Translations under genes and position numbers: made by a program
Part shown: one piece after another, positions 1 through 25,798 of the stretch
How positions within the stretch are numbered: the stretch's first letter is position 1
How the letters are laid out: every line of letters begins with the position of its first letter
The notes under the pieces: model-generated
Told to the model about the DNA's origin: nothing
The model's database searches: none
What the model saw: the letters and a program-made list of their open reading frames with translations, nothing else
Assembly (NCBI RefSeq): GCF_000195755.1
Contig: NC_002937.3
Span: 750,001 to 782,000 of the forward strand
DNA: 32,000 nucleotides
Direction of reading: 5' to 3'
DNA from: Nitratidesulfovibrio vulgaris str. Hildenborough
Lineage (GTDB): Bacteria; Desulfobacterota; Desulfovibrionia; Desulfovibrionales; Desulfovibrionaceae

Positions 1-287
1 TTGCGGCCCATGGGGTCTTGCGATGCCGTGGGGCCGAGACGCCTGAAGAGGTCGTCGACATCAGGTCCCGCGATGCCGTCTGCCTGCAGGCGAAGCATGA
101 CGGGCCTCCAGCTTGTGGCAATGTCCTGAGGGGCAGGATAGCTGCCGGGGACCACCGGGGCTGGCTGCGGAGTCTGACTGGGTGTCTCGGGGCGTGAGGA
201 TGTTCCGGCACAGGCGGTGAGACCGAGGGCCAGAAGACAGGTAAGGAGGGGCCTTACGGCGCGGGCAAGGATGGCTCGACGTTTCAT
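1..287 (-). CDS. lipoprotein, N-terminal part only (gene runs off the left edge); possibly a murein-transglycosylase-like periplasmic protein
   Basis: Absent from the ORF track because it has no stop in the window. Reverse-strand ATG at 287..285 gives MKRRAILARAVRPLLTCLLALGLTAC/AGTSSRPETPSQ...: basic n-region, hydrophobic core and lipobox L-T-A-C. The frame stays open to position 1. GGAG lies 12 nt upstream. The functional guess is weak. Confidence 0.7.
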   Translation of the reverse strand, partial: MKRRAILARAVRPLLTCLLALGLTACAGTSSRPETPSQTPQPAPVVPGSYPAPQDIATSWRPVMLRLQADGIAGPDVDDLFRRLGPTASQDPMGR

Positions 288-293
288 GTGCTG

Positions 294-322
294 AAGATAC
301 TCCAGCCCTTCTGGCGGTGCAA
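294..322 (-). promoter_or_regulatory. possible sigma70-type promoter of the lipoprotein gene (near-leaderless)
   Basis: Minus strand TTGCAC (322..317), 17-nt spacer, TATCTT (299..294). This would put the transcription start at or next to the ATG at 287. Motif match only. Confidence 0.2.
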
Positions 323-336
323 GGCGGCAGCGGGGG

Positions 337-381
337 AAAAGGTCGAAGCCTCCGGGATGGGGGGGTATCCCGGAGGCTTCG
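337..381 (-). terminator. rho-independent terminator (minus strand)
   Basis: 15-bp perfect stem (381..367 pairs with 358..344; core GAAGCCUCCGGGAU / AUCCCGGAGGCUUC), 8-nt loop ACCCCCCC, then ACC and UUUU (340..337). Confidence 0.7.
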
Positions 382-488
382 CAGGAAGGAACAGGCCGGT
401 CTCCGCTGGGGGGGGAGTGGCGGAGGGCCGTGAACCGACATGGAACCGGGATGGTCGGGGGGGATGACCATCAAGAACCGGCTCCTGC
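337..488 (-). ncRNA. candidate sigma54-dependent small RNA (~150 nt) with three poly-C-loop hairpins
   Basis: Bounded by the sigma54 promoter at 514..499 (predicted start near 488) and the terminator at 381..337. No credible ORF. Hairpin 1 is 472..450 (7-bp stem, loop AUCCCCCCC). Hairpin 2 is 425..401 (6-bp stem CUCCGC/GCGGAG, loop CACUCCCCCCCCA), extendable by GGCC/GGCC at 429..426 and 397..394. Hairpin 3 is the terminator (loop ACCCCCCC). The linkers contain CCCUCC and UCCUUCCU. The + strand G-runs at 359-365, 408-415 and 457-463 are spaced 49 nt apart. Confidence 0.5.
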
Positions 489-498
489 ACTACTGTAT

Positions 499-514
499 AG
501 CAAATGGTGTGCCA
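499..514 (-). promoter_or_regulatory. sigma54 (-24/-12) promoter
   Basis: Minus strand reads TGGCACaccatTTGCT. GG and GC are spaced exactly as in the consensus TGGCAC-N5-TTGCW. It lies 85-140 bp downstream of tandem palindromes and next to a sigma54-activator gene. Confidence 0.65.
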
Positions 515-596
515 TGCTCGTGGTGGGGCCAGATGGGCTTCTGAGGCGGTTTTGTTTGCGGCTGCTAGACGAAAGAGCGGGTGTCTTCGGCGTTTC

Positions 597-641
597 GTGC
601 GGAAAAGCACGTGCGAATACGCACGGCGTGCGATTGCGCAC
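597..641. promoter_or_regulatory. three tandem palindromic sites, likely upstream activating sequence for an enhancer-binding protein
   Basis: GTGCGgaaaAGCAC (597..610), GTGCGaataCGCAC (611..624) and GTGCGattgCGCAC (628..641). The last site overlaps the first base of the response-regulator stop codon at 641..643. Confidence 0.55.
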
Positions 642-2107
642 TATTTGCGGAGGCGGCGCAGCAGGGCGAAGCGCGAGAGGCCGAGAAGGGTGGCCGCGCG
701 GGTCTTGTTTCCGTTGCAGCGTTGCAGGGCCTGTTCTACGAGGCGTTCGACGAACTCATGCAGGTTCATGCCCTCGTCAGGGATGCGAAAGTCTTCCGGT
801 GTCGACGTGAGGACTTCGTTGGCAGGGGGGCCCTCGGACCCGGTCCTGTGGGACACATCGTCCGAAAGCCTGATGGGGAGGACGAGGTGCTCCGGGCGAA
901 GCAGCGTCCCGTCATGCAGCAGGACCGCGCGTTCGATGGTGTTTTCCAGTTCGCGGACGTTACCCTTCCAGACGGCGCTTTGCAGCAGGGCGAGTGCTTC
1001 ATCGTCGATGCCCGTGAATTGCTTTTTCTTGCGGGCGGCTTCCCGGCGCAGGAAGAGGGCTGCCATCTCCGGGATGTCTTCGCGCCTTTCACGCAACGGT
1101 GGCAGGATGAGGTGCCCGACCCGAAGCCGATGATAGAGGTCGCGTCTGAACAGGCCGTTTTCGACCATCTGCTCGAGGTCGCGGTTGGCCGCGCATACGA
1201 TGCGTGCGCGGAAGTTGCGCCGCTTGAGGCCGCCCAGCCTGTAGAAGGTGCGTTCTTCAAGGACGCGCAAGAGCTTGGGTTGCAGATGCAAGGGCAGTTC
1301 AGCCACTTCGTCCAGGAAAAGAGTGCCGTCGGCTGCCAGTTCGAGCTTCCCCGGCGAGCCTCCGCTCCGGCTTCCGGTGTAGGCTCCCGCCTCGTGTCCG
1401 AAGAGCTCGCTCTCGAACAGTTCGGTGGGGATGGCGGCGCAGTTGAGGTCGATGAAGGGCCTGTCGTCGCCGTCGTGTCCGAAATGGACGAGTCTTGCCA
1501 CGACCTCCTTGCCGGTGCCCGTTTCGCCTTCGACAAGGACGGGTACGGAAGGGTCGGCATGGAAGATGGCGGCTTCTTCGAGGATGCGCCGCATGGCGGG
1601 CGAGGCTGTGACGATGTCTCCGATGCCCGAGACGTTGCGAAGCCGCAGACGAGCCGCTTCAAGGTCCTGCCGCAATGCCGTTGTGGCCTGCGCAACACGT
1701 CCTTCCATGTCGGAACGGAGAGTGGCGTTTTCCGAGACCAGCGCCATATGCTCTGCACAGCGGTCGACCACGATGGCGAGTTCGCGGGCGTTGATGGGCT
1801 TGTTGAGGTAGTCGTAGGCCCCGCGTCGCAGGGCTTCCACGGCTGTCTCCATGTCGCCGTGGCCGGTGATGAGGACCACATTGCTCTTCGCCGTGGCCGT
1901 ATCCGACTTGAGGTGGGCGAGAAGCTCAAGCCCGTCCATGTCAGGCATGCGGATGTCGGTGATTATCAGCGGGTAGAACGTACGGGCCGCTTCTTCGATG
2001 GCCCGGTGCGGATGCGGCACGGCAGTGGCCTGATGCCCGAGGTCTTCCAGCACGGTGCGGAGGCTTTCGAGGCTGGTGGCGTTGTCATCGACTATCAGGA
2101 TGCGCAA
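641..2107 (-). CDS. sigma54-dependent response regulator (NtrC family enhancer-binding protein)
   Basis: REC domain (MRILIVDD...ITDIRMPDMDG). AAA+ sigma54-interaction domain (GETGTGKE, ESELFGHEAGAYTGS, LFLDEV). C-terminal Fis-type HTH (NKTRAATLLGLSRFALLRRLRK). TTG start at 2107 with GGAGA 7 nt upstream. Overlaps the upstream kinase gene by 13 nt. Confidence 0.95.
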   Translation of the reverse strand: MRILIVDDNATSLESLRTVLEDLGHQATAVPHPHRAIEEAARTFYPLIITDIRMPDMDGLELLAHLKSDTATAKSNVVLITGHGDMETAVEALRRGAYDYLNKPINARELAIVVDRCAEHMALVSENATLRSDMEGRVAQATTALRQDLEAARLRLRNVSGIGDIVTASPAMRRILEEAAIFHADPSVPVLVEGETGTGKEVVARLVHFGHDGDDRPFIDLNCAAIPTELFESELFGHEAGAYTGSRSGGSPGKLELAADGTLFLDEVAELPLHLQPKLLRVLEERTFYRLGGLKRRNFRARIVCAANRDLEQMVENGLFRRDLYHRLRVGHLILPPLRERREDIPEMAALFLRREAARKKKQFTGIDDEALALLQSAVWKGNVRELENTIERAVLLHDGTLLRPEHLVLPIRLSDDVSHRTGSEGPPANEVLTSTPEDFRIPDEGMNLHEFVERLVEQALQRCNGNKTRAATLLGLSRFALLRRLRK

Positions 2108-4026
2108 GACGGGTCTCCGTTATCAGGCGTTGGTGCCGGTCCAAGACCGGAAGGGGACGGGCGGGAAGCTGCAGGACACGGGGGGGCTGCCTCCGAAGCG
2201 TTGAGCATGATGGTGAAAACCGCCCCGGTTCGTGGGGGGCGCCTGCTTGCTGCGGTGATGGTGCCGCCCCACGATTCGACGAACCCGTGGACCAGCGCAA
2301 GGCCCAGCCCCATGCCGGAATGGGCGTCCTTGGTGGTGAAGAAGGGGTCGAACACCCTGTCCTCCATGAGGCCGAGACCGGGCCCGTTGTCCTCGACGGA
2401 GAGCGCGACCCGGTTTCCGTGGCGTCTTGCAGAGACGGTGATGTCGCGCGCAGGCTGTCGTGATGCGTCGAGCGCGTGCATGGCGTTGACGATGAGGTTG
2501 ATCAGGGTCTGTTCAAGCTGCACTGGAACGGCGAGCACATCAGGAAGGTCGGGCGCGATGTCGAGCGACGCGTCGATGCCGTGATTGCGCAACTGCGCCC
2601 CGATGAGACCGAAGGCCTCGGCACAGGCATGGGCGATGGACGTGGGACGACACTGGATATCACCGTGCGTGACCAGCGCCCGCATGTGCTCGATGATGTC
2701 ACGTATGCGGTCCGCCTCGCGCAGGATGCGCGACAGCCGTTCGAGGAGCATGTCGCGGTCGACCACAGGTCGCTTCTCCACCAGCATCTCAAGCCCCCCG
2801 GCATACAGCCGCAACGCGCTCAGGGGCTGGTTGATTTCATGCGCGACGCCTGTGGCCAGTGTACCCAGTGCCTCCAGCCTGCGCGCCTGTGCCAGTTGAC
2901 GTTCGACGCGCAGCCGGTCGGTCTCGTCGTCAAGCATGATGACGGCCGCTTCGACAGACTGGCCCTGCGTGGAGATGGGGCAGGCCTGTAGCCTGAAGTT
3001 GCGCTCTTCGGGCTGCCCCGGCAGGTGCAGTACGAAGCTGCGCTGGTGCGTTGCGCCGTCTCGGAAGACATCGATGGCCGGGCAGCCTGAACAGCGGCTG
3101 TTGCCATCACCGCAGAAGTCATGAAGCAGTCTGCACAGGGGCATGCCCACTGGGTCGAGGCCGAACCACTGCAACATGCGGGGGTTGGCCGCTTCTATGC
3201 GCAGGGCGGGGTCGATGACGGCAATGCCCTGCGCAAGGTTGTCGGTAATCGACCGTGAACGCTCCTCGCTGCGTGAGAGCGCTTCAAGGGCCTTCACGCC
3301 TGTGGTGATGTCGAGCCCCAGTTTGAGCACAAGGGATGAGCCGTCGATATCCTCGAAGGGATAGGCGTACACCCTGAAGGCCGAACCGTTCTTCCGGGTC
3401 CAGTCGCTGACGCAGAGTGTGCGGGTCTCGAAGACTTCGCATGGCGGGCAGTGCGCACAGGGCGTGGGACTGCCGCGCAGTACTTCGTGGCAGGCCTTGC
3501 CCACCCCGGGGCCGAACAACTGCCGAGAAGCCCTGTTCTCGTAGCGAATCCTGTGGTCGGAACCTATCAGCATCACGTATCCCGGCAGCCTGTCCAGAAG
3601 GTTGAGCAGGCGCGAGCGTTCACTGCGAAGGTCGCCGGTGGGTATGCTCTCGGCAAGCGGCAGCGGCATGGCGGCGATGGTGGCACCGCTGCCCACGGGT
3701 CTGGCCGCTATCTGGATGTGGACGGGGCCCGAACGGCCACGAAGCGTGAGTGCGAAAGGCGAGAAGTCGCCACTGGCCTGCCGCAGAATGGCCCGTTCTA
3801 TGGTCGGCAGGTTGTTCTCGGACGAGAGGTCCGCGAGTAGCCTCGTGAGGAACTCCGCAGGGGGCCAGCCCGTGAGCGGTTGCAGGACGGCAGCTGTGGT
3901 GCCGAGAGGGGAACCGGAGCAGTCGGGCGCATCGGAAAGCTGCTCGACGAGGCGCGCGACGGCGGACGAGAAAGGGGTGTCCCCTTCAAGGAAGGGGGGA
4001 CTGATGGCGGAGGGGGGCGTGGGCAT
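2095..4026 (-). CDS. cytoplasmic sensor histidine kinase with two Cys-rich PAS domains
   Basis: H-box HEINQPLSAL and a HATPase_c domain (DNGPGL, GMGLGLALV). No TM segment seen. I chose the ATG at 4026 (MPTPPSAISPP...), 2 nt after the upstream gene stop (TGAccATG), because the longer ORF start at 4167 would overlap that gene by about 140 nt. Confidence 0.9.
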   Translation of the reverse strand: MPTPPSAISPPFLEGDTPFSSAVARLVEQLSDAPDCSGSPLGTTAAVLQPLTGWPPAEFLTRLLADLSSENNLPTIERAILRQASGDFSPFALTLRGRSGPVHIQIAARPVGSGATIAAMPLPLAESIPTGDLRSERSRLLNLLDRLPGYVMLIGSDHRIRYENRASRQLFGPGVGKACHEVLRGSPTPCAHCPPCEVFETRTLCVSDWTRKNGSAFRVYAYPFEDIDGSSLVLKLGLDITTGVKALEALSRSEERSRSITDNLAQGIAVIDPALRIEAANPRMLQWFGLDPVGMPLCRLLHDFCGDGNSRCSGCPAIDVFRDGATHQRSFVLHLPGQPEERNFRLQACPISTQGQSVEAAVIMLDDETDRLRVERQLAQARRLEALGTLATGVAHEINQPLSALRLYAGGLEMLVEKRPVVDRDMLLERLSRILREADRIRDIIEHMRALVTHGDIQCRPTSIAHACAEAFGLIGAQLRNHGIDASLDIAPDLPDVLAVPVQLEQTLINLIVNAMHALDASRQPARDITVSARRHGNRVALSVEDNGPGLGLMEDRVFDPFFTTKDAHSGMGLGLALVHGFVESWGGTITAASRRPPRTGAVFTIMLNASEAAPPCPAASRPSPSGLGPAPTPDNGDPSCAS

Positions 4027-4028
4027 GG

Positions 4029-6032
4029 TCAGTCTGTGGTGTGTTCGATGGGGGGCACTTCCGTCGTGCCCATGCCGGACAGAATGAGGCCGATGGTGCG
4101 CGAGAGCAATGATTCCAGTCGTGGAACGAGTTGCCTTGCTCCTGCGGTGTCGTCTTCGACAAGGCACAATCCCACGCGTTCCGTCAACATGGCAAGGGCC
4201 ACGGCGCCAGCATGCTCCGAAGCGAGGCGCAGCCGTTTGTTGAAGCGTGCGGCTTGTTGTGCGTCACCTTCTTCAAGGGCTCCGGCGAGCAGAGCGAAAT
4301 GCCGGGGGGCCTCATCGCAGAACGCCTTCCAGACCGGTTCGACAAGGTTGTGGTCTCCCCCGTGCCGCCGGACGACCTCGGACGGGGCAAGCAGGGCCGA
4401 CCTGTCGGGGATGACGGGAATGTCCCGCGCAGACGATGCCGAAAGGGCGAACCTGTCGAGCATGGCGTTGAAGGCTCGGGCGTTGATGGGCTTGGCGATG
4501 TAGTCGGTCATGCCCGAAGCCAGGAAGCGTTCGCGGTCGCCCTTGAGGGCATGTGCCGTGACGGCTACGACGGGGATGTTGCGGTCGACTCCGGGGTACT
4601 GGGCGTTGCGGATGCGTCGCAGCAATTCCAGCCCGCCCATGGGGTGCATCTTGACGTCCAGCAGGACGAGGTCGAACCGGTCGGCGGTGAGTCGCTGGAG
4701 GGCCGTGGCACCATCGTGGGCGCAGGCACAGACATGCCCTCTCTTGCGGAGCATCTTGCAGGTTATCGTCCGGCCCGTGGCGTCATCGTCCACCACCAGC
4801 ACCCGAAGCGGGCGTGCTCCTGATGCGGGTGTCGCTGAAGAGGTCGGGGCCTGAGCGTGTTCGGAAGGTGTGTTGATGGCAGGCGTCTCGGGCCGTAGAC
4901 GGCAGGTGAAGTGAAAGCTGCTTCCCTGTCCTTCGCTACTGCGGGCCCATATGCTGCCGCCCATGATTTCGACGAGGTTTCGGCAGATGGCGAGACCAAG
5001 CCCCGTGCCGCCATAGCGTTGGACCGTCTCTTCTGCACCCTGGCTGAACGCCTCGAAGATGGTGCGGAGGTGTTCATCGGCGATGCCGATGCCCGTGTCG
5101 CGAATGGAGAACAGCAGGGTGAGGCTTGAGGGCGGCCCGTCGGGAAAGAGCGATTCGAGAAGCGTCTGGTCCTGGGGGATGGCGCTCACTTCGATGATGA
5201 CCGAGCCCTTGTGGGTGAACTTGACGGCATTGCCGACGAGGTTGGCGAGTACCTGTGTAAGGCGTGTCGCGTCGCCTGTCAGTCTGTCCGGGACATCGGG
5301 CGTTACACGGAAGTCCAGGGAGATGTTCTTGCGTTCGGCTTCCGACCGCGATGCCTGCACAACCTGCTTCAGCAGTCTATCCAGTGAGAAGGGACGTTCC
5401 ACAAGCCGCAACTGGCGAGCCTCAAGCCGGGAGAAGTCGAGCACGTCGTGCAGCAGGGTGAGCAGCGTCTCGGAAGATGCAAGGACGGTGTTCAGGCTTT
5501 CGCGTTGTTCGCCCGACAGCGGGGTATCGAGGACCAGTTCCGTCATGCCCACGATGCCGTTCAGGGTGTTGCGTATTTCGTGGCTCATGCCTGCGAGGAA
5601 CGACGTCTTCGCAAGGCTGGCATGTTCCGCAGCCTGTCGGGCTTCGTCGATTTCGCGAACGGCCCTGTGCTTGAGCAGGGCGACCTCGATGGTGGAGTAG
5701 AGTTCGCGTTCGGCAAAGGGCTTGACAAGAAAGCCGAACGGCCCGGCTTTCATGGCCCTTGAGAGGGTCGCTTCGTCGGAGAAGGCGGTGAGAAAGACGA
5801 CAGGAATGTCGAACTGGTTGGTGATGACATGGGCGGCGTCTACGCCGTCACCGCGCCGCAGGCGGATGTCCATCAGAACGAGGTCCGGCCTGAGACGCTT
5901 CGCCGCATCGATGGCTCCGTCTGCATCCGTCTCGACGGCAGGCACTATGTACCCAAGACCTTCGAGCGTGCGCCGTAGATCAAGTGCGACGATCTGTTCG
6001 TCGTCGACGACGATGATACGAAGATTCGGCAT
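4029..6032 (-). CDS. hybrid histidine kinase: REC - HisKA/HATPase - REC - HPt-like tail
   Basis: N-terminal REC (RIIVVDDEQ...LVLMDIRL). H-box SHEIRNTLNGIVG. G2 box GTGLGLAICRNLVEIMGG. Second REC (RVLVVDDD...LVLLDVKM). C-terminal four-helix HPt-like region. ATG at 6032 (MPNLRIIVVDD) preceded by GGAG; the ORF-track start at 6086 is TTG with no RBS. Confidence 0.9.
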   Translation of the reverse strand: MPNLRIIVVDDEQIVALDLRRTLEGLGYIVPAVETDADGAIDAAKRLRPDLVLMDIRLRRGDGVDAAHVITNQFDIPVVFLTAFSDEATLSRAMKAGPFGFLVKPFAERELYSTIEVALLKHRAVREIDEARQAAEHASLAKTSFLAGMSHEIRNTLNGIVGMTELVLDTPLSGEQRESLNTVLASSETLLTLLHDVLDFSRLEARQLRLVERPFSLDRLLKQVVQASRSEAERKNISLDFRVTPDVPDRLTGDATRLTQVLANLVGNAVKFTHKGSVIIEVSAIPQDQTLLESLFPDGPPSSLTLLFSIRDTGIGIADEHLRTIFEAFSQGAEETVQRYGGTGLGLAICRNLVEIMGGSIWARSSEGQGSSFHFTCRLRPETPAINTPSEHAQAPTSSATPASGARPLRVLVVDDDATGRTITCKMLRKRGHVCACAHDGATALQRLTADRFDLVLLDVKMHPMGGLELLRRIRNAQYPGVDRNIPVVAVTAHALKGDRERFLASGMTDYIAKPINARAFNAMLDRFALSASSARDIPVIPDRSALLAPSEVVRRHGGDHNLVEPVWKAFCDEAPRHFALLAGALEEGDAQQAARFNKRLRLASEHAGAVALAMLTERVGLCLVEDDTAGARQLVPRLESLLSRTIGLILSGMGTTEVPPIEHTTD

Positions 6033-6155
6033 GTATCTCCGGTTCCGGGTTTCTTCGTGTATGCCCCGAAAAGGCTTCACATGCAAGGCGCGCCAAGGCC
6101 CGGAAAAGGCAGGAACGGCCCGGATTCCACGTGAGGGCTGGCGGTGAAGGGGCGA

Positions 6156-6172
6156 TTGCCTCTGTGGTGCCG
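6156..6172 (-). promoter_or_regulatory. weak candidate sigma54 promoter upstream of the phosphorelay operon
   Basis: Minus strand reads cGGCACcacagagGCAa. GG/GC spacing is correct but the -12 element is AGGCA rather than TTGCA. About 125 nt upstream of the ATG at 6032. Confidence 0.3.
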
Positions 6173-6195
6173 CCGGTGTTGCCAGCCCGGGTACG

Positions 6196-6226
6196 AAAAA
6201 AACGGGCGACCCTTGCGGGCCGCCCG
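6196..6226 (-). terminator. rho-independent terminator of the repressor gene
   Basis: Minus strand CGGGCGGCCC-gcaa-GGGUCGCCCG (10-bp stem with one mismatch) followed by UUUUUUU (6202..6196). Lies 26 nt after the stop at 6252. Confidence 0.75.
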
Positions 6227-6251: not shown

Positions 6252-6950
6252 TCAGATGCGCTGGAGCACCCACACGATACGCCCGAAGATACGGTCGGCG
6301 TGCTGGTCGATGGGCAGATACTGCTCGGGGTGGGTGGGATTCTCTGTCCGGAGGATGAACCGGGCATTGGCAGCATCGAGGAACACCCGCTTGATGGCGA
6401 CACCCTCGAAGGGCATGAAGACGCCATAGAGTTCGCCCGAGACGATGTTCTTCTGGGTGGTGTCTATGCCGACGAAAGCACCCTTGCCGATGACGGGTTC
6501 CATGGCGCCTGCATCCACACGCACTATCTGCGTTCCGGGGGCGGCAAACGACTGGGGTACGGCAAGTTTGGCGATGGCCGTGAGCGGTTGCGAAACACCG
6601 TTCTCGTCGACAGCGCAGCCCATGGCGAACACAGTGGCGACACTGCTCTTGGCATCAGGGTCGCCGTAACGCGCGGGGTCTTCAAGCACGAGTCCGGCGA
6701 CGGGGGCGTCGAGCGGTTCATACCCCTGGTCGGTACGCAGGTACATGGGGCCGGAGCCCTTCTTGAGCCAGTCAGGATTCAGCCCGAACTTCTCGAACAG
6801 TTTCATGTACCAGTCGGAGGGGACGGAGTTGCGTCGTTTGGCGTCTGATATGCTCGACTGGCGAATGTCGAGGACTTCCGCCAGCTCGACCTGCGTTCTG
6901 GTGTTCGTGGCGAGCTTGATGCGCTCAAAGACTTCATCGAACGTAGACAA
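6252..6950 (-). CDS. phage CI-type HTH repressor with S24 (LexA/CI) peptidase-like C-terminal domain
   Basis: The N-terminus STFDEVFERIKLATNTRTQVELAEVLDIRQSSISDAKRRNSVPSDWYMKLFEKFGLNPDWLKKG looks like a CI-repressor HTH. The C-terminus VRVDAGAMEPVIGKGAFVGID...VAIKRV is an S24 fold. I chose the TTG at 6950 with GGAGAA 5 nt upstream. ATGs at 7040 and 7097 lie inside or upstream of the predicted promoter, so an annotated start could differ. Confidence 0.8.
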   Translation of the reverse strand: MSTFDEVFERIKLATNTRTQVELAEVLDIRQSSISDAKRRNSVPSDWYMKLFEKFGLNPDWLKKGSGPMYLRTDQGYEPLDAPVAGLVLEDPARYGDPDAKSSVATVFAMGCAVDENGVSQPLTAIAKLAVPQSFAAPGTQIVRVDAGAMEPVIGKGAFVGIDTTQKNIVSGELYGVFMPFEGVAIKRVFLDAANARFILRTENPTHPEQYLPIDQHADRIFGRIVWVLQRI

Positions 6951-7038
6951 TGCTTTTCTCCGGGCGGCGAAGCCGGGCCTGGGGCCTGGGCATCGCCTCT
7001 GATCTGAGTGCTCTCGTCTGTAGGGTATCCTAGCTACC

Positions 7039-7067
7039 ATTATAGACGAGTGCAACACTATTGTTGA
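7039..7067 (-). promoter_or_regulatory. sigma70-type promoter with overlapping palindromic operator for the repressor gene
   Basis: Minus strand TCAACA (7067..7062), 17-nt spacer, TATAAT (7044..7039). The palindrome CAACActatTGTTG (7053..7066) overlaps the -35 element. Confidence 0.45.
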
Positions 7068-7135
7068 AGAAGAGTACGCTCCGCGCTCCGGTTGCATGGA
7101 GCTAAAGGTCTTGCGTATGGCGTACTATGGCGAGC

Positions 7136-7200
7136 AAAAATCGGGCCACCAACGTGTCTTCGTGGAATCTCCAGCGAAGTGGCACGTATGGTGGCCCGAT
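7136..7200 (-). terminator. probable hflC terminator (long-loop hairpin plus U run)
   Basis: Minus strand AUCGGGCCACC (7200..7190) pairs with GGUGGCCCGAU (7150..7140), followed by a U run (A5 on the + strand at 7136..7140). The large 39-nt interior may fold further. Confidence 0.5.
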
Positions 7201-14175: not shown

Positions 14176-14348
14176 TTGTTCCGCTAGCCTCTGCGGGTGT
14201 GGCCGCAGGCCCCACGGCGCAGATGGGCGGCGAGCCATCGTGGCGGGCGTGGCGCACCTTGCTTTTTGCATGATGCCCATAACGACGCTTCACATGTAAT
14301 GACCGATGACGTATACGATTCTCCTATCCGGGGGGAGGGAGCAGGAGA

Positions 14349-15020
14349 ATGGCACAGACCGAGCAACAACCCGCCGTCACGCGGGCACGCACGGGGACTA
14401 CGCTTGCCGTGCCCACAGGGACGAGGATGCTGCTGACTCTTCCGGGAGTCTTCGACAACATCCCCACCGACCTCGTGGGTATCGTCCAGGGCGAATTCCT
14501 CATTCTCAAGATGCCCATGGTTCCCGGCATCCGCGCCCGTCTGGGGCAGGGTGAACCTGTCACCATCCGGTATCTTTGCGGCGGCGTCATCTACGGTTTC
14601 GGCTCTTCGGTGATCACCTTCATTTCGCGCCCAGGGTTCCTGGTCTTTCTGGCATTCCCGGATGTCGTGGAACAGCTGGAATTGCGTCAGCACAGGCGTG
14701 TGAACTGCCTTCTGCCGTGTGCCGTACATGTCCCGGGCTGCGTCCTCTCGGGTATCATGCTCGACGTCAGCCTCGGTGGCTGCCGCATCGCGCTGGACCC
14801 CGGATGCACCCTGACCCCTGAAGACCTCGCCGGTCGGGATATGGTCGTCCTGCACCTGCCTACGCTGAGCGAGAACGAGAATACGGTGCTGTCCTGCCGC
14901 GTGAAGGCTGCAAATCTCGTCAACGGGCGTATCCATGCAGGATTGCAGTTCTTCGATCTGGACGAGGCTGCGAGAGGGGCATTGTTCGCCTACCTTGAAA
15001 CCGTATCGTGCCTTATCTGA
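14349..15020 (+). CDS. PilZ-domain c-di-GMP receptor (YcgR-like, N-terminal PilZN-type domain)
   Basis: PilZ motifs RQHRR (RxxxR) and DVSLGG (D/NxSxxG), then a C-terminal beta-barrel region (GLQFFDLD). G-rich SD GGGGGGAGGGAG lies upstream. Confidence 0.9.
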   Translation: MAQTEQQPAVTRARTGTTLAVPTGTRMLLTLPGVFDNIPTDLVGIVQGEFLILKMPMVPGIRARLGQGEPVTIRYLCGGVIYGFGSSVITFISRPGFLVFLAFPDVVEQLELRQHRRVNCLLPCAVHVPGCVLSGIMLDVSLGGCRIALDPGCTLTPEDLAGRDMVVLHLPTLSENENTVLSCRVKAANLVNGRIHAGLQFFDLDEAARGALFAYLETVSCLI

Positions 15021-23971: not shown

Positions 23972-25650
23972 ATGGCGAGAGAGTTACACACTGACGGGGA
24001 AGGCGATACTGCGGCCCATGCGCGCATCGCTGCACTTGAGGCCGAGGTTGAGGCCTTGCGTGCACGGGAACGGACGTTGCGCGATATTCTTCTTTCCATT
24101 CCCGACATGATCACCGTGCACGACCGTAACGAGAGCATCGTGTTCAGCAACTGGAAGGGTGACGACCTCTACTGGGAGAACCTTGGCGGTGAACGGCACG
24201 GAAGTCGGTGCTACGGCTGCTACTTCAGGGGGGAGAAGCAGTGCGACGCCTGTCAGATTGCCGAAGTCTTCGATACGGGCGTGCAGAAGAGCATCGAGCT
24301 TTACAACCCCGAGATTCGGGCCTTCAGGTCCATCACGGTCTTCCCGGTACACAACGCCGCTGGTGAGGTCGTGATGGTGGCCGAGTATGTGCGGGACGTG
24401 ACCGCCACGCGGCGTATGGAACGCGAACTGCGCGTTGCCAAAGAGGCGGCAGAGGCCGCGGACAAGGCCAAGAGCGAGTTTCTCGCCTCCATGAGTCACG
24501 AGATACGCACCCCCATGAACGGAGTGCTCGGCATGCTCGACCTTGCGCTCGATACGCGCCTCGACGATGAGCAGCGCGATTATCTCGAGGCGGCACAGAA
24601 TTCGGCCGAATCGCTGCTCGCGCTCATCAACGACATCCTCGACTTCTCCAAGATCGAAGCCGGCATGGTGGAACTGGACAGTCAGGCCTTCAGGCTACGT
24701 AAACGCCTCTCCACCCTGCACACCATGTTCGTGCACCGGGCAGAGGAGAAGGGCCTCGCCTTCGGGTTCCGCATCGGTGAAGAGGTGCCGGACGGGCTGG
24801 TGGGCGACCCCATGCGGCTGCGACAGGTGCTGGTCAACCTGCTGGACAATGCCATCAAGTTCACCGAGCAGGGGCGGGTCTATCTGGACGTGCAGCTTGA
24901 TGCAGCCCAAGGCGCGCTTCCGGCCGAAGGCGAGCCGATACTCCTGCGTTTTTCGGTCACGGACAGCGGGCCGGGTATTCTGGAAAGCCATCGCGAGCAT
25001 ATCTTCGAACGCTTCGTGCAGGCCGATGGTTCGCTGTCGCGCAGGCATCGCGGCACGGGGCTGGGCCTTGCCATCTGCAAACGGCTGGCGACGCTCATGG
25101 GGGGGACATCACGGTGGAAAGTGCTCCGGGCAGCGGCAGCACGTTCACCTTCACGGCGTCGTTCGAACGCGCCTCCTTCGACGGTGCCGCTGACGACCGC
25201 AAACTGGCGCGTCAGCCGCAGAAGCCCGTGACCCCGGCGCGCATCCTCGTCGCCGAGGACCATCCCATGAACCTCATGTTCATCGAGAAGCTTCTTGCCA
25301 AGCAGGGCTACGAGGTACACACCGTCACCGATGGCACCGAAGTGCTGCCCGCGTTGCAACGCGAGCGGTTCGACCTTGTACTCATGGACATCGCCATGCC
25401 GGTCATGGACGGTATCGAAGCTACCCGTAGTGTGCGTCAGGCCGGGAACATGATCACGGACAAGAACGTGCCCATCATCGCCATGACAGCCCATGCCATG
25501 AAAGGCGACCGTGAACAGTTCCTTGCCGCAGGCATGGACGACTACATCGGCAAGCCCATCAATTCAGACAATCTCTGCAACATGCTGCTGAAGCACCTGC
25601 AGCGTGCGCGCAGGGCGGCGGAGTGCGCTTCGGCGTCATCTCCGGCTTGA
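23972..25650 (+). pseudogene. hybrid PAS sensor histidine kinase / response regulator, interrupted by a 1-nt frameshift in a G7 run
   Basis: ORF 23948..25231 carries a coiled coil, a Cys-rich PAS domain, the H-box [13 protein letters not shown] and GTGLGLAICKRLATLMGG, then runs into nonsense. ORF 25114..25650 in the -1 frame continues with (DIT)VESAPGSGSTFTFT and a complete REC domain (ILVAEDH...LVLMDIAMP...K). The join is at GGGGGGG, 25099..25105. The start is uncertain (GTG at 23948 or ATG at 23972). Confidence 0.8.
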
Positions 25651-25706: not shown

Positions 25707-25798
25707 GGAAGGGTGGCAGAGTCCGGTTTATTGCGGCGGTCTTGAAAACCGTTGTGGGGGGAACCCCACCGGGGGTTCGAATCCCTCCCCTTCCGCCA
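25707..25798 (+). tRNA. tRNA-Ser (anticodon UGA), CCA encoded
   Basis: Cloverleaf by hand: acceptor GGAAGGG/CCCTTCC; D arm GCAG..TTGC with a GG loop; anticodon stem GCGGT/ACCGT with loop CT-TGA-AA; long variable arm (TGTGGGGGGAACCCCACCG); T arm GGGGG-TTCGAAT-CCCTC; discriminator G plus CCA. 92 nt. Confidence 0.95.

Follow-up and report, generated by a model that had tools for sequence, protein, structure and literature searches.

The stretch of DNA considered in this study (the window) comprises 32,000 nucleotides of the model sulfate reducer Nitratidesulfovibrio vulgaris str. Hildenborough (contig NC_002937.3, positions 750,001 to 782,000), which is named Desulfovibrio vulgaris Hildenborough (DvH) in the literature cited below. 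Close to its beginning, a non-coding interval separates the gene of a sigma54 enhancer-binding response regulator, DVU0679, from the lipoprotein gene DVU0677. This interval carries an element of approximately 152 nt (337..488) on the minus strand, which is almost certainly the published small RNA (sRNA) Dv_sRNA2, also listed as the 'ncRNA downstream of DVU0679'. If not stated otherwise, positions refer to the window and the features of this locus are located on its minus strand.

Organization of the locus

The response regulator DVU0679 (641..2107) has a length of 488 amino acids (aa) and contains a receiver, an AAA+ sigma54-interaction and a Fis-type helix-turn-helix (HTH) domain according to Pfam. 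Two sensor kinase genes, presumably DVU0680 and DVU0681, are located upstream of it (2095..6086), encoding a PAS-HisKA-HATPase protein followed by a hybrid kinase of the type HisKA-HATPase-receiver x2 (Pfam). Judged from synteny, these kinases presumably represent the input of the system and are presumably cognate to the response regulator.

Three DVU0679 binding sites serving as upstream activator sites follow directly on the regulator gene, namely AGTGCGCAATCGCACG (627..642, overlapping the stop codon of the regulator gene), CGTGCGTATTCGCACG (610..625) and CGTGCTTTTCCGCACG (596..611), which correspond to the published sites -355, -338 and -324. The three tandem palindromes noticed in the original prediction are indeed present: the pattern GTGC-N6-GCAC occurs three times at 597-641 (as GTGCG-N4-CGCAC, 642..596) and one more time in the whole 32 kb. 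The claimed sigma54 promoter was likewise recovered as TGGCACACCATTTGCT (499..514), reading TGGCAC-N5-TTGCT with the GG of the -24 element at 513/512 and the GC of the -12 element at 501/500. No other site in the window fits TGGCACN5TTGCW exactly; shuffled sequences gave a mean of 0.05 matches, and five of 100 shuffles contained at least one.

The predicted transcript (337..488) starts at 488-485 and ends at the U tract 340..337, the 5′-end being deduced from the -12 element and from a published T7 primer that starts at about 485. The next gene on the same strand, DVU0677, is a neighbour outside the sRNA unit. Its 5′ part covers 1..287 of the window and shows the ATG at 287, as had been proposed, together with a signal peptide and a lipobox. 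Orthologues of DVU0677 carry the lytic transglycosylase domain SLT_2, and the published table of DNA affinity purification and microarray analysis (DAP-chip) calls DVU0677 a transglycosylase.

Identity with the published sRNA Dv_sRNA2

By DAP-chip, the response regulator DVU0679 was found to target an sRNA located 3′ of its own gene, which was named Dv_sRNA2 (Rajeev 2011, PMC3333781). The authors call the binding-site motif of DVU0679 validated, confirm the expression of Dv_sRNA2 as a discrete sRNA by tiling arrays, and state that its function is unknown (Rajeev 2011, PMC3333781). In their peak table, DVU0677 starts at 750287 and DVU0679 at 752107, and therefore position x of the window equals genome position 750000 + x. 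Table S7 of the same study lists the DVU0679 sites AGTGCGCAATCGCACG (-355), CGTGCGTATTCGCACG (-338) and CGTGCTTTTCCGCACG (-324), counted from DVU0677, with the target 'Dv-sRNA2' (PMC3333781). The same sequences are found in the window at 642, 625 and 611, which is 287+355, 287+338 and 287+324, respectively.

The three sites are also given in Additional file 4 of a second study (Kazakov 2015, PMC4641369), and Additional file 6 of that study assigns the sigma54 promoter CATGGCACACCATTTGCTA at genome position 750515 to the 'ncRNA downstream of DVU0679'. This string is identical to positions 517..499 (-) of the window. The variant GAYTGS of the GAFTGA loop, reported there for DVU0679 (Kazakov 2015, PMC4641369), is the one read in the window translation. 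Finally, the primers 'Dv sRNA-2 T7 prom F/R' (Kempher 2019, bioRxiv 10.1101/803072) can be placed at 485..463 (forward) and 392..368 (reverse), each being one base short of the genome (GGTCTTG vs GGTTCTTG; CCTCGAAG vs CCTGCGAAG). The agreement of sites, distances, promoter string, GAYTGS loop and primers identifies the feature as a rediscovery of a published sRNA, and no difference between the published Dv_sRNA2 and the window element was seen.

The sRNA, its regulator, the binding sites and the promoter are therefore already known, having been published in 2011 and 2015. The original prediction of a sigma54-driven sRNA of about 150 nt under the control of the adjacent NtrC-type regulator thus describes Dv_sRNA2 (Rajeev 2011, Kazakov 2015), and its doubt as to whether the transcript had been reported before is settled. 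In the literature searched, descriptions of the secondary structure, the poly-C loops, the targets or the function of Dv_sRNA2 were not encountered. Nothing further on Dv_sRNA2 came up when the locus tags of the neighbouring genes and more recent sRNA work on DvH or G20 were searched for, and deletion-strain data for a dependence of the transcript on DVU0679 or RpoN were not found in this literature. Three other sigma54-dependent ncRNAs are reported for DvH, near DVU0653, DVU3282 and DVU2357, and DseA is the only sRNA of this organism for which a regulatory role was found in the literature searched.

Two side observations concern the published tables and the sigma54 promoters of the window. 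In Additional file 2 of Kazakov 2015, the row of DVU0744, and not that of DVU0679, shows the HTH sequence that the window regulator has (NLHEFVERLVEQALQRCNGNKTRAATLLGLSRFALLRRLRK, window 641-766 (-)), which looks like a row shift in this file or in its stored text. DVU0744 itself is the regulator assigned to a further published sigma54 promoter in the window, TGGCCCGATTTTTGCT at 7133-7148 (-), which belongs to DVU0682. This gene (6252-7097 (-)) encodes a protein with a CI-repressor HTH and an S24 peptidase domain (LexA-like).

Secondary structure of Dv_sRNA2

The RNA from 490 to 330 folds into three hairpins with a minimum free energy of -76.4 kcal/mol, in comparison with -48.3 +/- 3.7 kcal/mol for shuffled sequences (z = -7.54), and none of 200 shuffles was as stable. 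The loops of the three hairpins are AUCCCCCCC, CACUCCCCCCCCA and ACCCCCCC, and their C-runs at 463-457 (C7), 415-408 (C8) and 365-359 (C7) show a probability of being unpaired of 1.0 in all three cases, which substantiates the three poly-C loops previously drawn by eye. Hairpin 1 (442..485) consists of an outer stem (485-478/449-442), an inner stem (472-466/456-450) and the loop 465-457. In hairpin 2 (388..436), a lower stem with unpaired interruptions (436-426/397-388) is followed by an inner stem (425-420/406-401) and the loop 419-407.

Hairpin 3 (337..381) represents the intrinsic terminator, in which a stem of 15 bp (381-367/358-344) with the loop 366-359 is followed by ACCUUUU. Its two arms, 344-358 and 367-381, have a length of 15 nt each, are 100% complementary and are separated by 8 nt. 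The terminator claimed in the original prediction therefore stands with regard to its position (381..337), its stem and the presence of a U tract, while the U tract comprises only four U, which is the reason why the terminator is absent from a simple terminator scan. The proposed single-stranded linkers could be retained only in part: the CU-rich linker UGUUCCUUCCUG (382..393) is mostly unpaired (mean probability 0.64), whereas CCCUCC (427..422) is located in the stem of hairpin 2 and has a probability of being unpaired of 0.002. Of the relatives, L081 and L082 keep the linker sequence CCUUCCUGCG, while L083 carries a CU-rich variant.

Three of the six C7 runs of the window fall into the sRNA interval, with starts 49 nt apart. 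This spacing, noted before as exact, is so in the window; in the relatives described below it amounts to approximately 49-84 nt from start to start. Outside the sRNA, three runs of seven C or G were seen in the window, compared with approximately 8.9 in dinucleotide shuffles of the whole window including the sRNA, a difference that lacks significance in a sample of this size. This scarcity recalls the depletion of G-runs reported in mycobacteria which carry 6C RNA.

Conservation of the regulator and sRNA module

Orthologues of the regulator are numerous (roughly 650; 56-89% identity), and twelve loci of regulator relatives were taken by exact protein. In addition, a DNA pattern composed of the upstream activator site junction and the promoter was scanned in metagenome data and gave 17 matches, six of which are true loci, the others being chance matches or members of an unrelated promoter family. 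The RNA is located 3′ of the regulator relative in ten of the twelve protein-derived loci (L081-L088, L106 and L109), and activator sites, sigma54 promoter and C-loop RNA are also found together at the metagenome loci L091, L093, L094, L104 and L105. Species represented among the orthologues include D. mangrovi (CP104208), D. subterraneus (CP087381), Halodesulfovibrio and Oleidesulfovibrio. The arrangement in the window, which is kept in relatives, thus consists of an NtrC-family gene, upstream activator sites, a -24/-12 promoter and a non-coding RNA with a terminator.

The order of palindromes, promoter and C-run hairpin RNA was observed in L081-L084, L086-L088, L091, L093, L094, L104, L105 and L109. 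The palindromes start either directly at the stop codon of the regulator gene or shortly behind it, and the sigma54 promoter follows 82-106 nt further on in the loci with a measured gap. Most orthologues possess a C-loop terminator hairpin with a U tract; in L109, the hairpin is present and a U tract was not found after it. The number of hairpins per RNA ranges from three to five and that of tandem copies from one to three. The largest copy number occurs in L106 (LT599018.1, uncultured deltaproteobacterium), where three tandem modules of palindromes, promoter (3618, 3926, 4243) and sRNA lie at 3475-4400, each copy having its own promoter and four hairpins with C5-6 loops; this triplication is a multiplication of the gene as known from Qrr. 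In L085 (Megalodesulfovibrio gigas CP006585, 4085-4750), an open reading frame (ORF) of 114 aa (4130-4474), for which no Pfam match was obtained, separates the promoter from five hairpin C-runs (4540-4726). The order of kinase and regulator genes is kept in L081-L086 and L088, and the two PAS kinases encoded upstream in L087 are different ones.

Neither palindromes nor promoter nor C-loop RNA were detected 3′ of the regulator in L107 (3476-4000) and L108 (3605-4100). The regulators of these two loci show 57-59% identity and the sequence GAFTGS in place of GAYTGS, and their target, if any, lies elsewhere. A protein-seeded contig scan with the response regulator returned, among the matches listed, only NtrC paralogues of at most 44% identity, some of whose loci served as negative controls.

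A covariance model (R1) matches the window at 337-489 with 190.9 bits and, at the expected place, every orthologous locus (L081-L088, L106, L109, L091, L093, L094, L104 and L105), while the eleven paralogue loci as well as L107 and L108 remained without a match. The model was built from four near-identical DvH-like sequences and aligns only hairpins 2 and 3 of distant members, and for this reason the alignment A4 was left out of the pair counts given below. One weak R1 match of 12.4 bits (E = 0.65) lies at 6069-6217 (-), just upstream of the start of the hybrid kinase gene, and is probably noise because no C7 run is found there. The metagenome loci L090, L096 and L100 are unrelated but fit the pattern of palindrome junction and promoter (CGCACGTGCGAAAnCGCAC ... 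TGGCA-N7-TGC) and continue with a conserved ORF starting MSTDTLERPEVEV; they may represent a separate regulon whose activator site is similar.

Covariation of the stems and constancy of the loops

An alignment of all homologues by MAFFT misaligned the distant ones, so two subgroups were analysed and complemented by a loop-anchored comparison. On the plain MAFFT alignments, RNAalifold yielded the same fold with three domains for either subgroup. In the distant subgroup (MAFFT alignment A5), 10 of 53 pairs are changed on both sides, compared with 3.3 in shuffles (0 of 500 reach this value), and 91% of the cells are paired, in comparison with 28-49% when the partners are slid.

In the loop-anchored comparison, at least five consecutive pairs flank 35 of the 49 C-runs of the sRNAs and 39 of 252 control C-runs. 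The inner stems are 100% paired, as opposed to 51-72% after shuffling of the arms, and none of 2000 shuffles reached the observed value. For hairpin 2, the inner stem shows nine sequences among ten lineages, all of them paired, in contrast to 51% with shuffled arms. This comparison is partly circular, since for every C-run the best-pairing flanks had been picked as its stem, and the control C-runs and the shuffling of arms offset this circularity only in part. The only constant feature of the loops is the C-run itself (5-11 C), the flanking loop bases and the stems varying freely. The structure of this RNA is under selection across the Desulfovibrionaceae, and the conservation of promoter and hairpins which the original prediction asked for was found together with covarying stems.

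Leader and coding interpretations

Dv_sRNA2 and DVU0677 lie on one strand at a distance of about 50 nt, and the short U tract of four U makes some read-through plausible. The sigma54 transcript could therefore be regarded as a cis-acting leader, that is the 5′ untranslated region of DVU0677 with the hairpins as an attenuator, and an SLT_2 gene is indeed the next gene after the RNA in L081-L083 and L106. The identity of this next gene varies by lineage, though, being an SLT_2 gene, a gene for a periplasmic binding protein (Peripla_BP_6) or a gene on the opposite strand. The RNA is kept where a periplasmic binding protein gene (L084, L088) or an opposite-strand gene (L086, L087, L109) follows, and hence it stays with the regulator and not with the downstream gene. 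Moreover, the published tiling-array data show a discrete sRNA, and the sequence TTGCA...GGAGTATCTT-N6-ATG between terminator and ATG is a possible promoter or ribosome-binding site of DVU0677 itself. Taken together, a leader function appears very improbable. The motif TTGCA-N17/18-GGAGTATCTT-N6-ATG is located at 322-285 (-) and conserved at L081:4288-4328 and L082:4305-4345; it may serve the transglycosylase gene as a promoter of its own, whose mRNA would be nearly leaderless, or as a distant Shine-Dalgarno sequence. A promoter scan did not call TTGCA-N17/18-GGAGTATCTT, which is a weak match to the sigma70 consensus.

The second interpretation to be considered is that of a small protein, namely a peptide rich in proline that would be translated across the C-runs, since two mechanical ORFs (284..610 and 61..474 (-)) span the interval. 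We assign next to no probability to it. The C-run lengths of 7, 8, 9 and 11 differ by non-multiples of three and, with an inter-hairpin spacing of about 49-84 nt, no frame is kept, so that a conserved reading frame is ruled out by the length variation. Besides, the substitutions in the stems are compensatory, and the ORFs cross the terminator and enter the next gene out of frame, in agreement with the earlier view that the interval holds no credible ORF. Both interpretations were rejected, the leader on the basis of synteny and the peptide on the basis of the frame-breaking length variation.

Proposed mode of action

The following sequence of events could account for the locus. DVU0679, presumably phosphorylated by the two kinases encoded upstream, would bind the three palindromes which start at its own stop codon and, from approximately 100 bp upstream, would activate the sigma54 RNA polymerase at TGGCAC-N5-TTGC. 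Transcription would start near 488-485 and stop at the 15-bp terminator (~337), yielding a non-coding transcript of approximately 152 nt which displays three fully unpaired C7-8 loop runs and a CU-rich linker. The C-loops would then pair in trans with G-rich sequences in or close to ribosome-binding sites and repress translation, probably without a chaperone, as described for 6C in Actinobacteria. The binding data (DAP-chip), the expression data (tiling array) and the promoter prediction behind this scheme are the work of others, while locus identity, conservation of the RNA, covariation of the stems and linkage to the regulator stem from the present analysis. For the pairing of the C-loops taken by itself, we see about an even chance; the account as a whole, comprising Dv_sRNA2, the circuit of DVU0679 and sigma54, and pairing of C-loops in trans, is on balance probable.

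Candidate targets were ranked by duplex energies over 510 candidate starts with a background of -13.6 +/- 4.6 kcal/mol. A G-rich leader, GGGGGGAGGGAGCAGGAGAAUG (14326..14351 (+)), belongs to a PilZ/YcgR-type gene (Pfam PilZ and PilZNR) and contains GGGGGGAG at 14330-14337, just 5′ of the ATG at 14349. Its predicted duplex energies amount to -26.4 kcal/mol for loop 2 and -26.8 kcal/mol for the linker, which places the leader fourth of the 510 starts and, as two of the better-ranked ones are antisense to the sRNA, second among real gene starts. The start of a sensor-kinase gene at 23972 (-28.9 kcal/mol) is, together with the PilZ gene, one of the two best genuine starts. The ranking is suggestive only, since the scan covers 32 kb. 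The PilZ leader singled out in the original prediction therefore remains a candidate by position and rank, while specificity of the match is not supported.

Several points weigh against the proposed mode of action or against details of it. The C-run is conserved without a specific seed and the number of hairpins varies from three to five, which fits a protein decoy equally well. The target scan was confined to the 32-kb window, and this genome has many G-rich Shine-Dalgarno regions; a target was also missing from the literature searched. In its one published application, Dv_sRNA2 served as a negative control, which did not bind sahR (Kempher 2019, bioRxiv 10.1101/803072). The reverse primer ends within the terminator stem, and so the in-vitro control RNA was without an intact hairpin 3. 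As this primer stops at about 368, the mapped 3′-end may differ from the predicted one at ~337, and the U tract (340..337) is short with its four U.

The main rival of trans-acting base pairing is a protein decoy of the CsrB/RsmZ or CrcZ type, in which the poly-C hairpins would titrate a C-preferring RNA-binding protein, so that the two-component signal would control the activity of the bound protein. Such a function would readily explain why the C-run is the sole conserved feature of the loops, and three to five C-loop hairpins together with the triplication in L106 are typical of decoy RNAs. CrcZ of Pseudomonas, which is sigma54-dependent and encoded beside the NtrC-family activator CbrB, likewise speaks for it. 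Yet a candidate gene for a poly-C-binding protein was not present beside the locus in the lineages examined, the closest structural analogue, 6C, works by base pairing, and multiple copies with multiple loops are frequent among base-pairing sRNAs, for example Qrr, as well. We thus regard the decoy function, including the control of a bound protein by the two-component signal, as unlikely.

Comparison with known sRNA families and regulatory modules

The Rfam scan proposed in the original prediction was carried out, and no sRNA family matched the element at gathering score. With E <= 10, a scan of window 200-700 gave sub-threshold matches to 6C, mir-5856, Scr3202, CC3664 and Actino-pnp, which reflect a GC-rich hairpin. 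The best of them in bits is 6C (RF01066) with 28.9 bits (E = 0.071), compared with a gathering score of 47, and its alignment covers the terminator hairpin only, the first hairpin of the model being aligned and the second mostly deleted. Qrr, GlmY/GlmZ, Pxr and CrcZ were not matched at E <= 10 in window 200-700, nor at gathering score in the whole window. The only Rfam match of the window at gathering score is a long-arm tRNA at 25707-25795 (+), with 89 nt and 54.4 bits.

As a discovery, the finding is minor, although it illustrates that a true sigma54-dependent sRNA module can be recognised by reading the raw sequence. New in this analysis is the conserved design with poly-C loops, for which no Rfam family and no description in the literature searched were found. 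The comparative data thereby offer a handle on an RNA whose function was not described in that literature: one naked C-run per loop, covarying stems, linkage to the regulator and tandem multiplication lead to a testable mechanism, which could consist in base pairing to G-tracts or in protein capture. It is a tentative and rather doubtful extension of these data that Dv_sRNA2 is the prototype of an undescribed, non-Rfam, Desulfovibrionaceae-wide family of poly-C-loop sRNAs coupled to a sigma54 activator, a convergent counterpart of 6C which silences mRNAs with G-tract leaders, such as those of the YcgR-type PilZ gene and the sensor kinase gene, free of a chaperone. If true, the family would link an orphan two-component signal to motility or cyclic di-GMP output.

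In terms of RNA structure, 6C is the nearest known system, an actinobacterial RNA with two conserved C-rich hairpins. Dv_sRNA2 shares with 6C (RF01066; B11 in mycobacteria) the loops with at least six consecutive C and the high-GC host, and the C-rich loops of 6C bind G-rich regions of ribosome-binding sites without a chaperone (PMC6486639). In contrast to 6C, RNAs of the Dv_sRNA2 type have a sigma54 promoter, a two-component regulator of their own and three to five hairpins, and the resemblance is convergent and not a sign of membership.

With respect to gene organization, other systems come closer. Qrr, GlmY and CrcZ are sigma54-dependent sRNAs activated by NtrC-family regulators encoded nearby, and Qrr is present in multiple copies. 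Qrr/LuxO, GlmY/GlrR and CrcZ/CbrB hence are modules of the same kind as that of Dv_sRNA2 with a different RNA family, and their motif content is unlike that of Dv_sRNA2: Qrr has a conserved 5′ seed, GlmY acts by mimicry of GlmZ, and CrcZ carries A-rich Hfq motifs. Pxr of Myxococcus is, as far as the passages available on it go, an sRNA located 3′ of the sigma54 response regulator gene nla19 with its own sigma54 promoter, like Dv_sRNA2, and these passages also describe three stem-loops and tandem paralogues as in the Dv_sRNA2 module. They make no mention of poly-C loops, the feature in which Dv_sRNA2 differs from Pxr as it is presented there.

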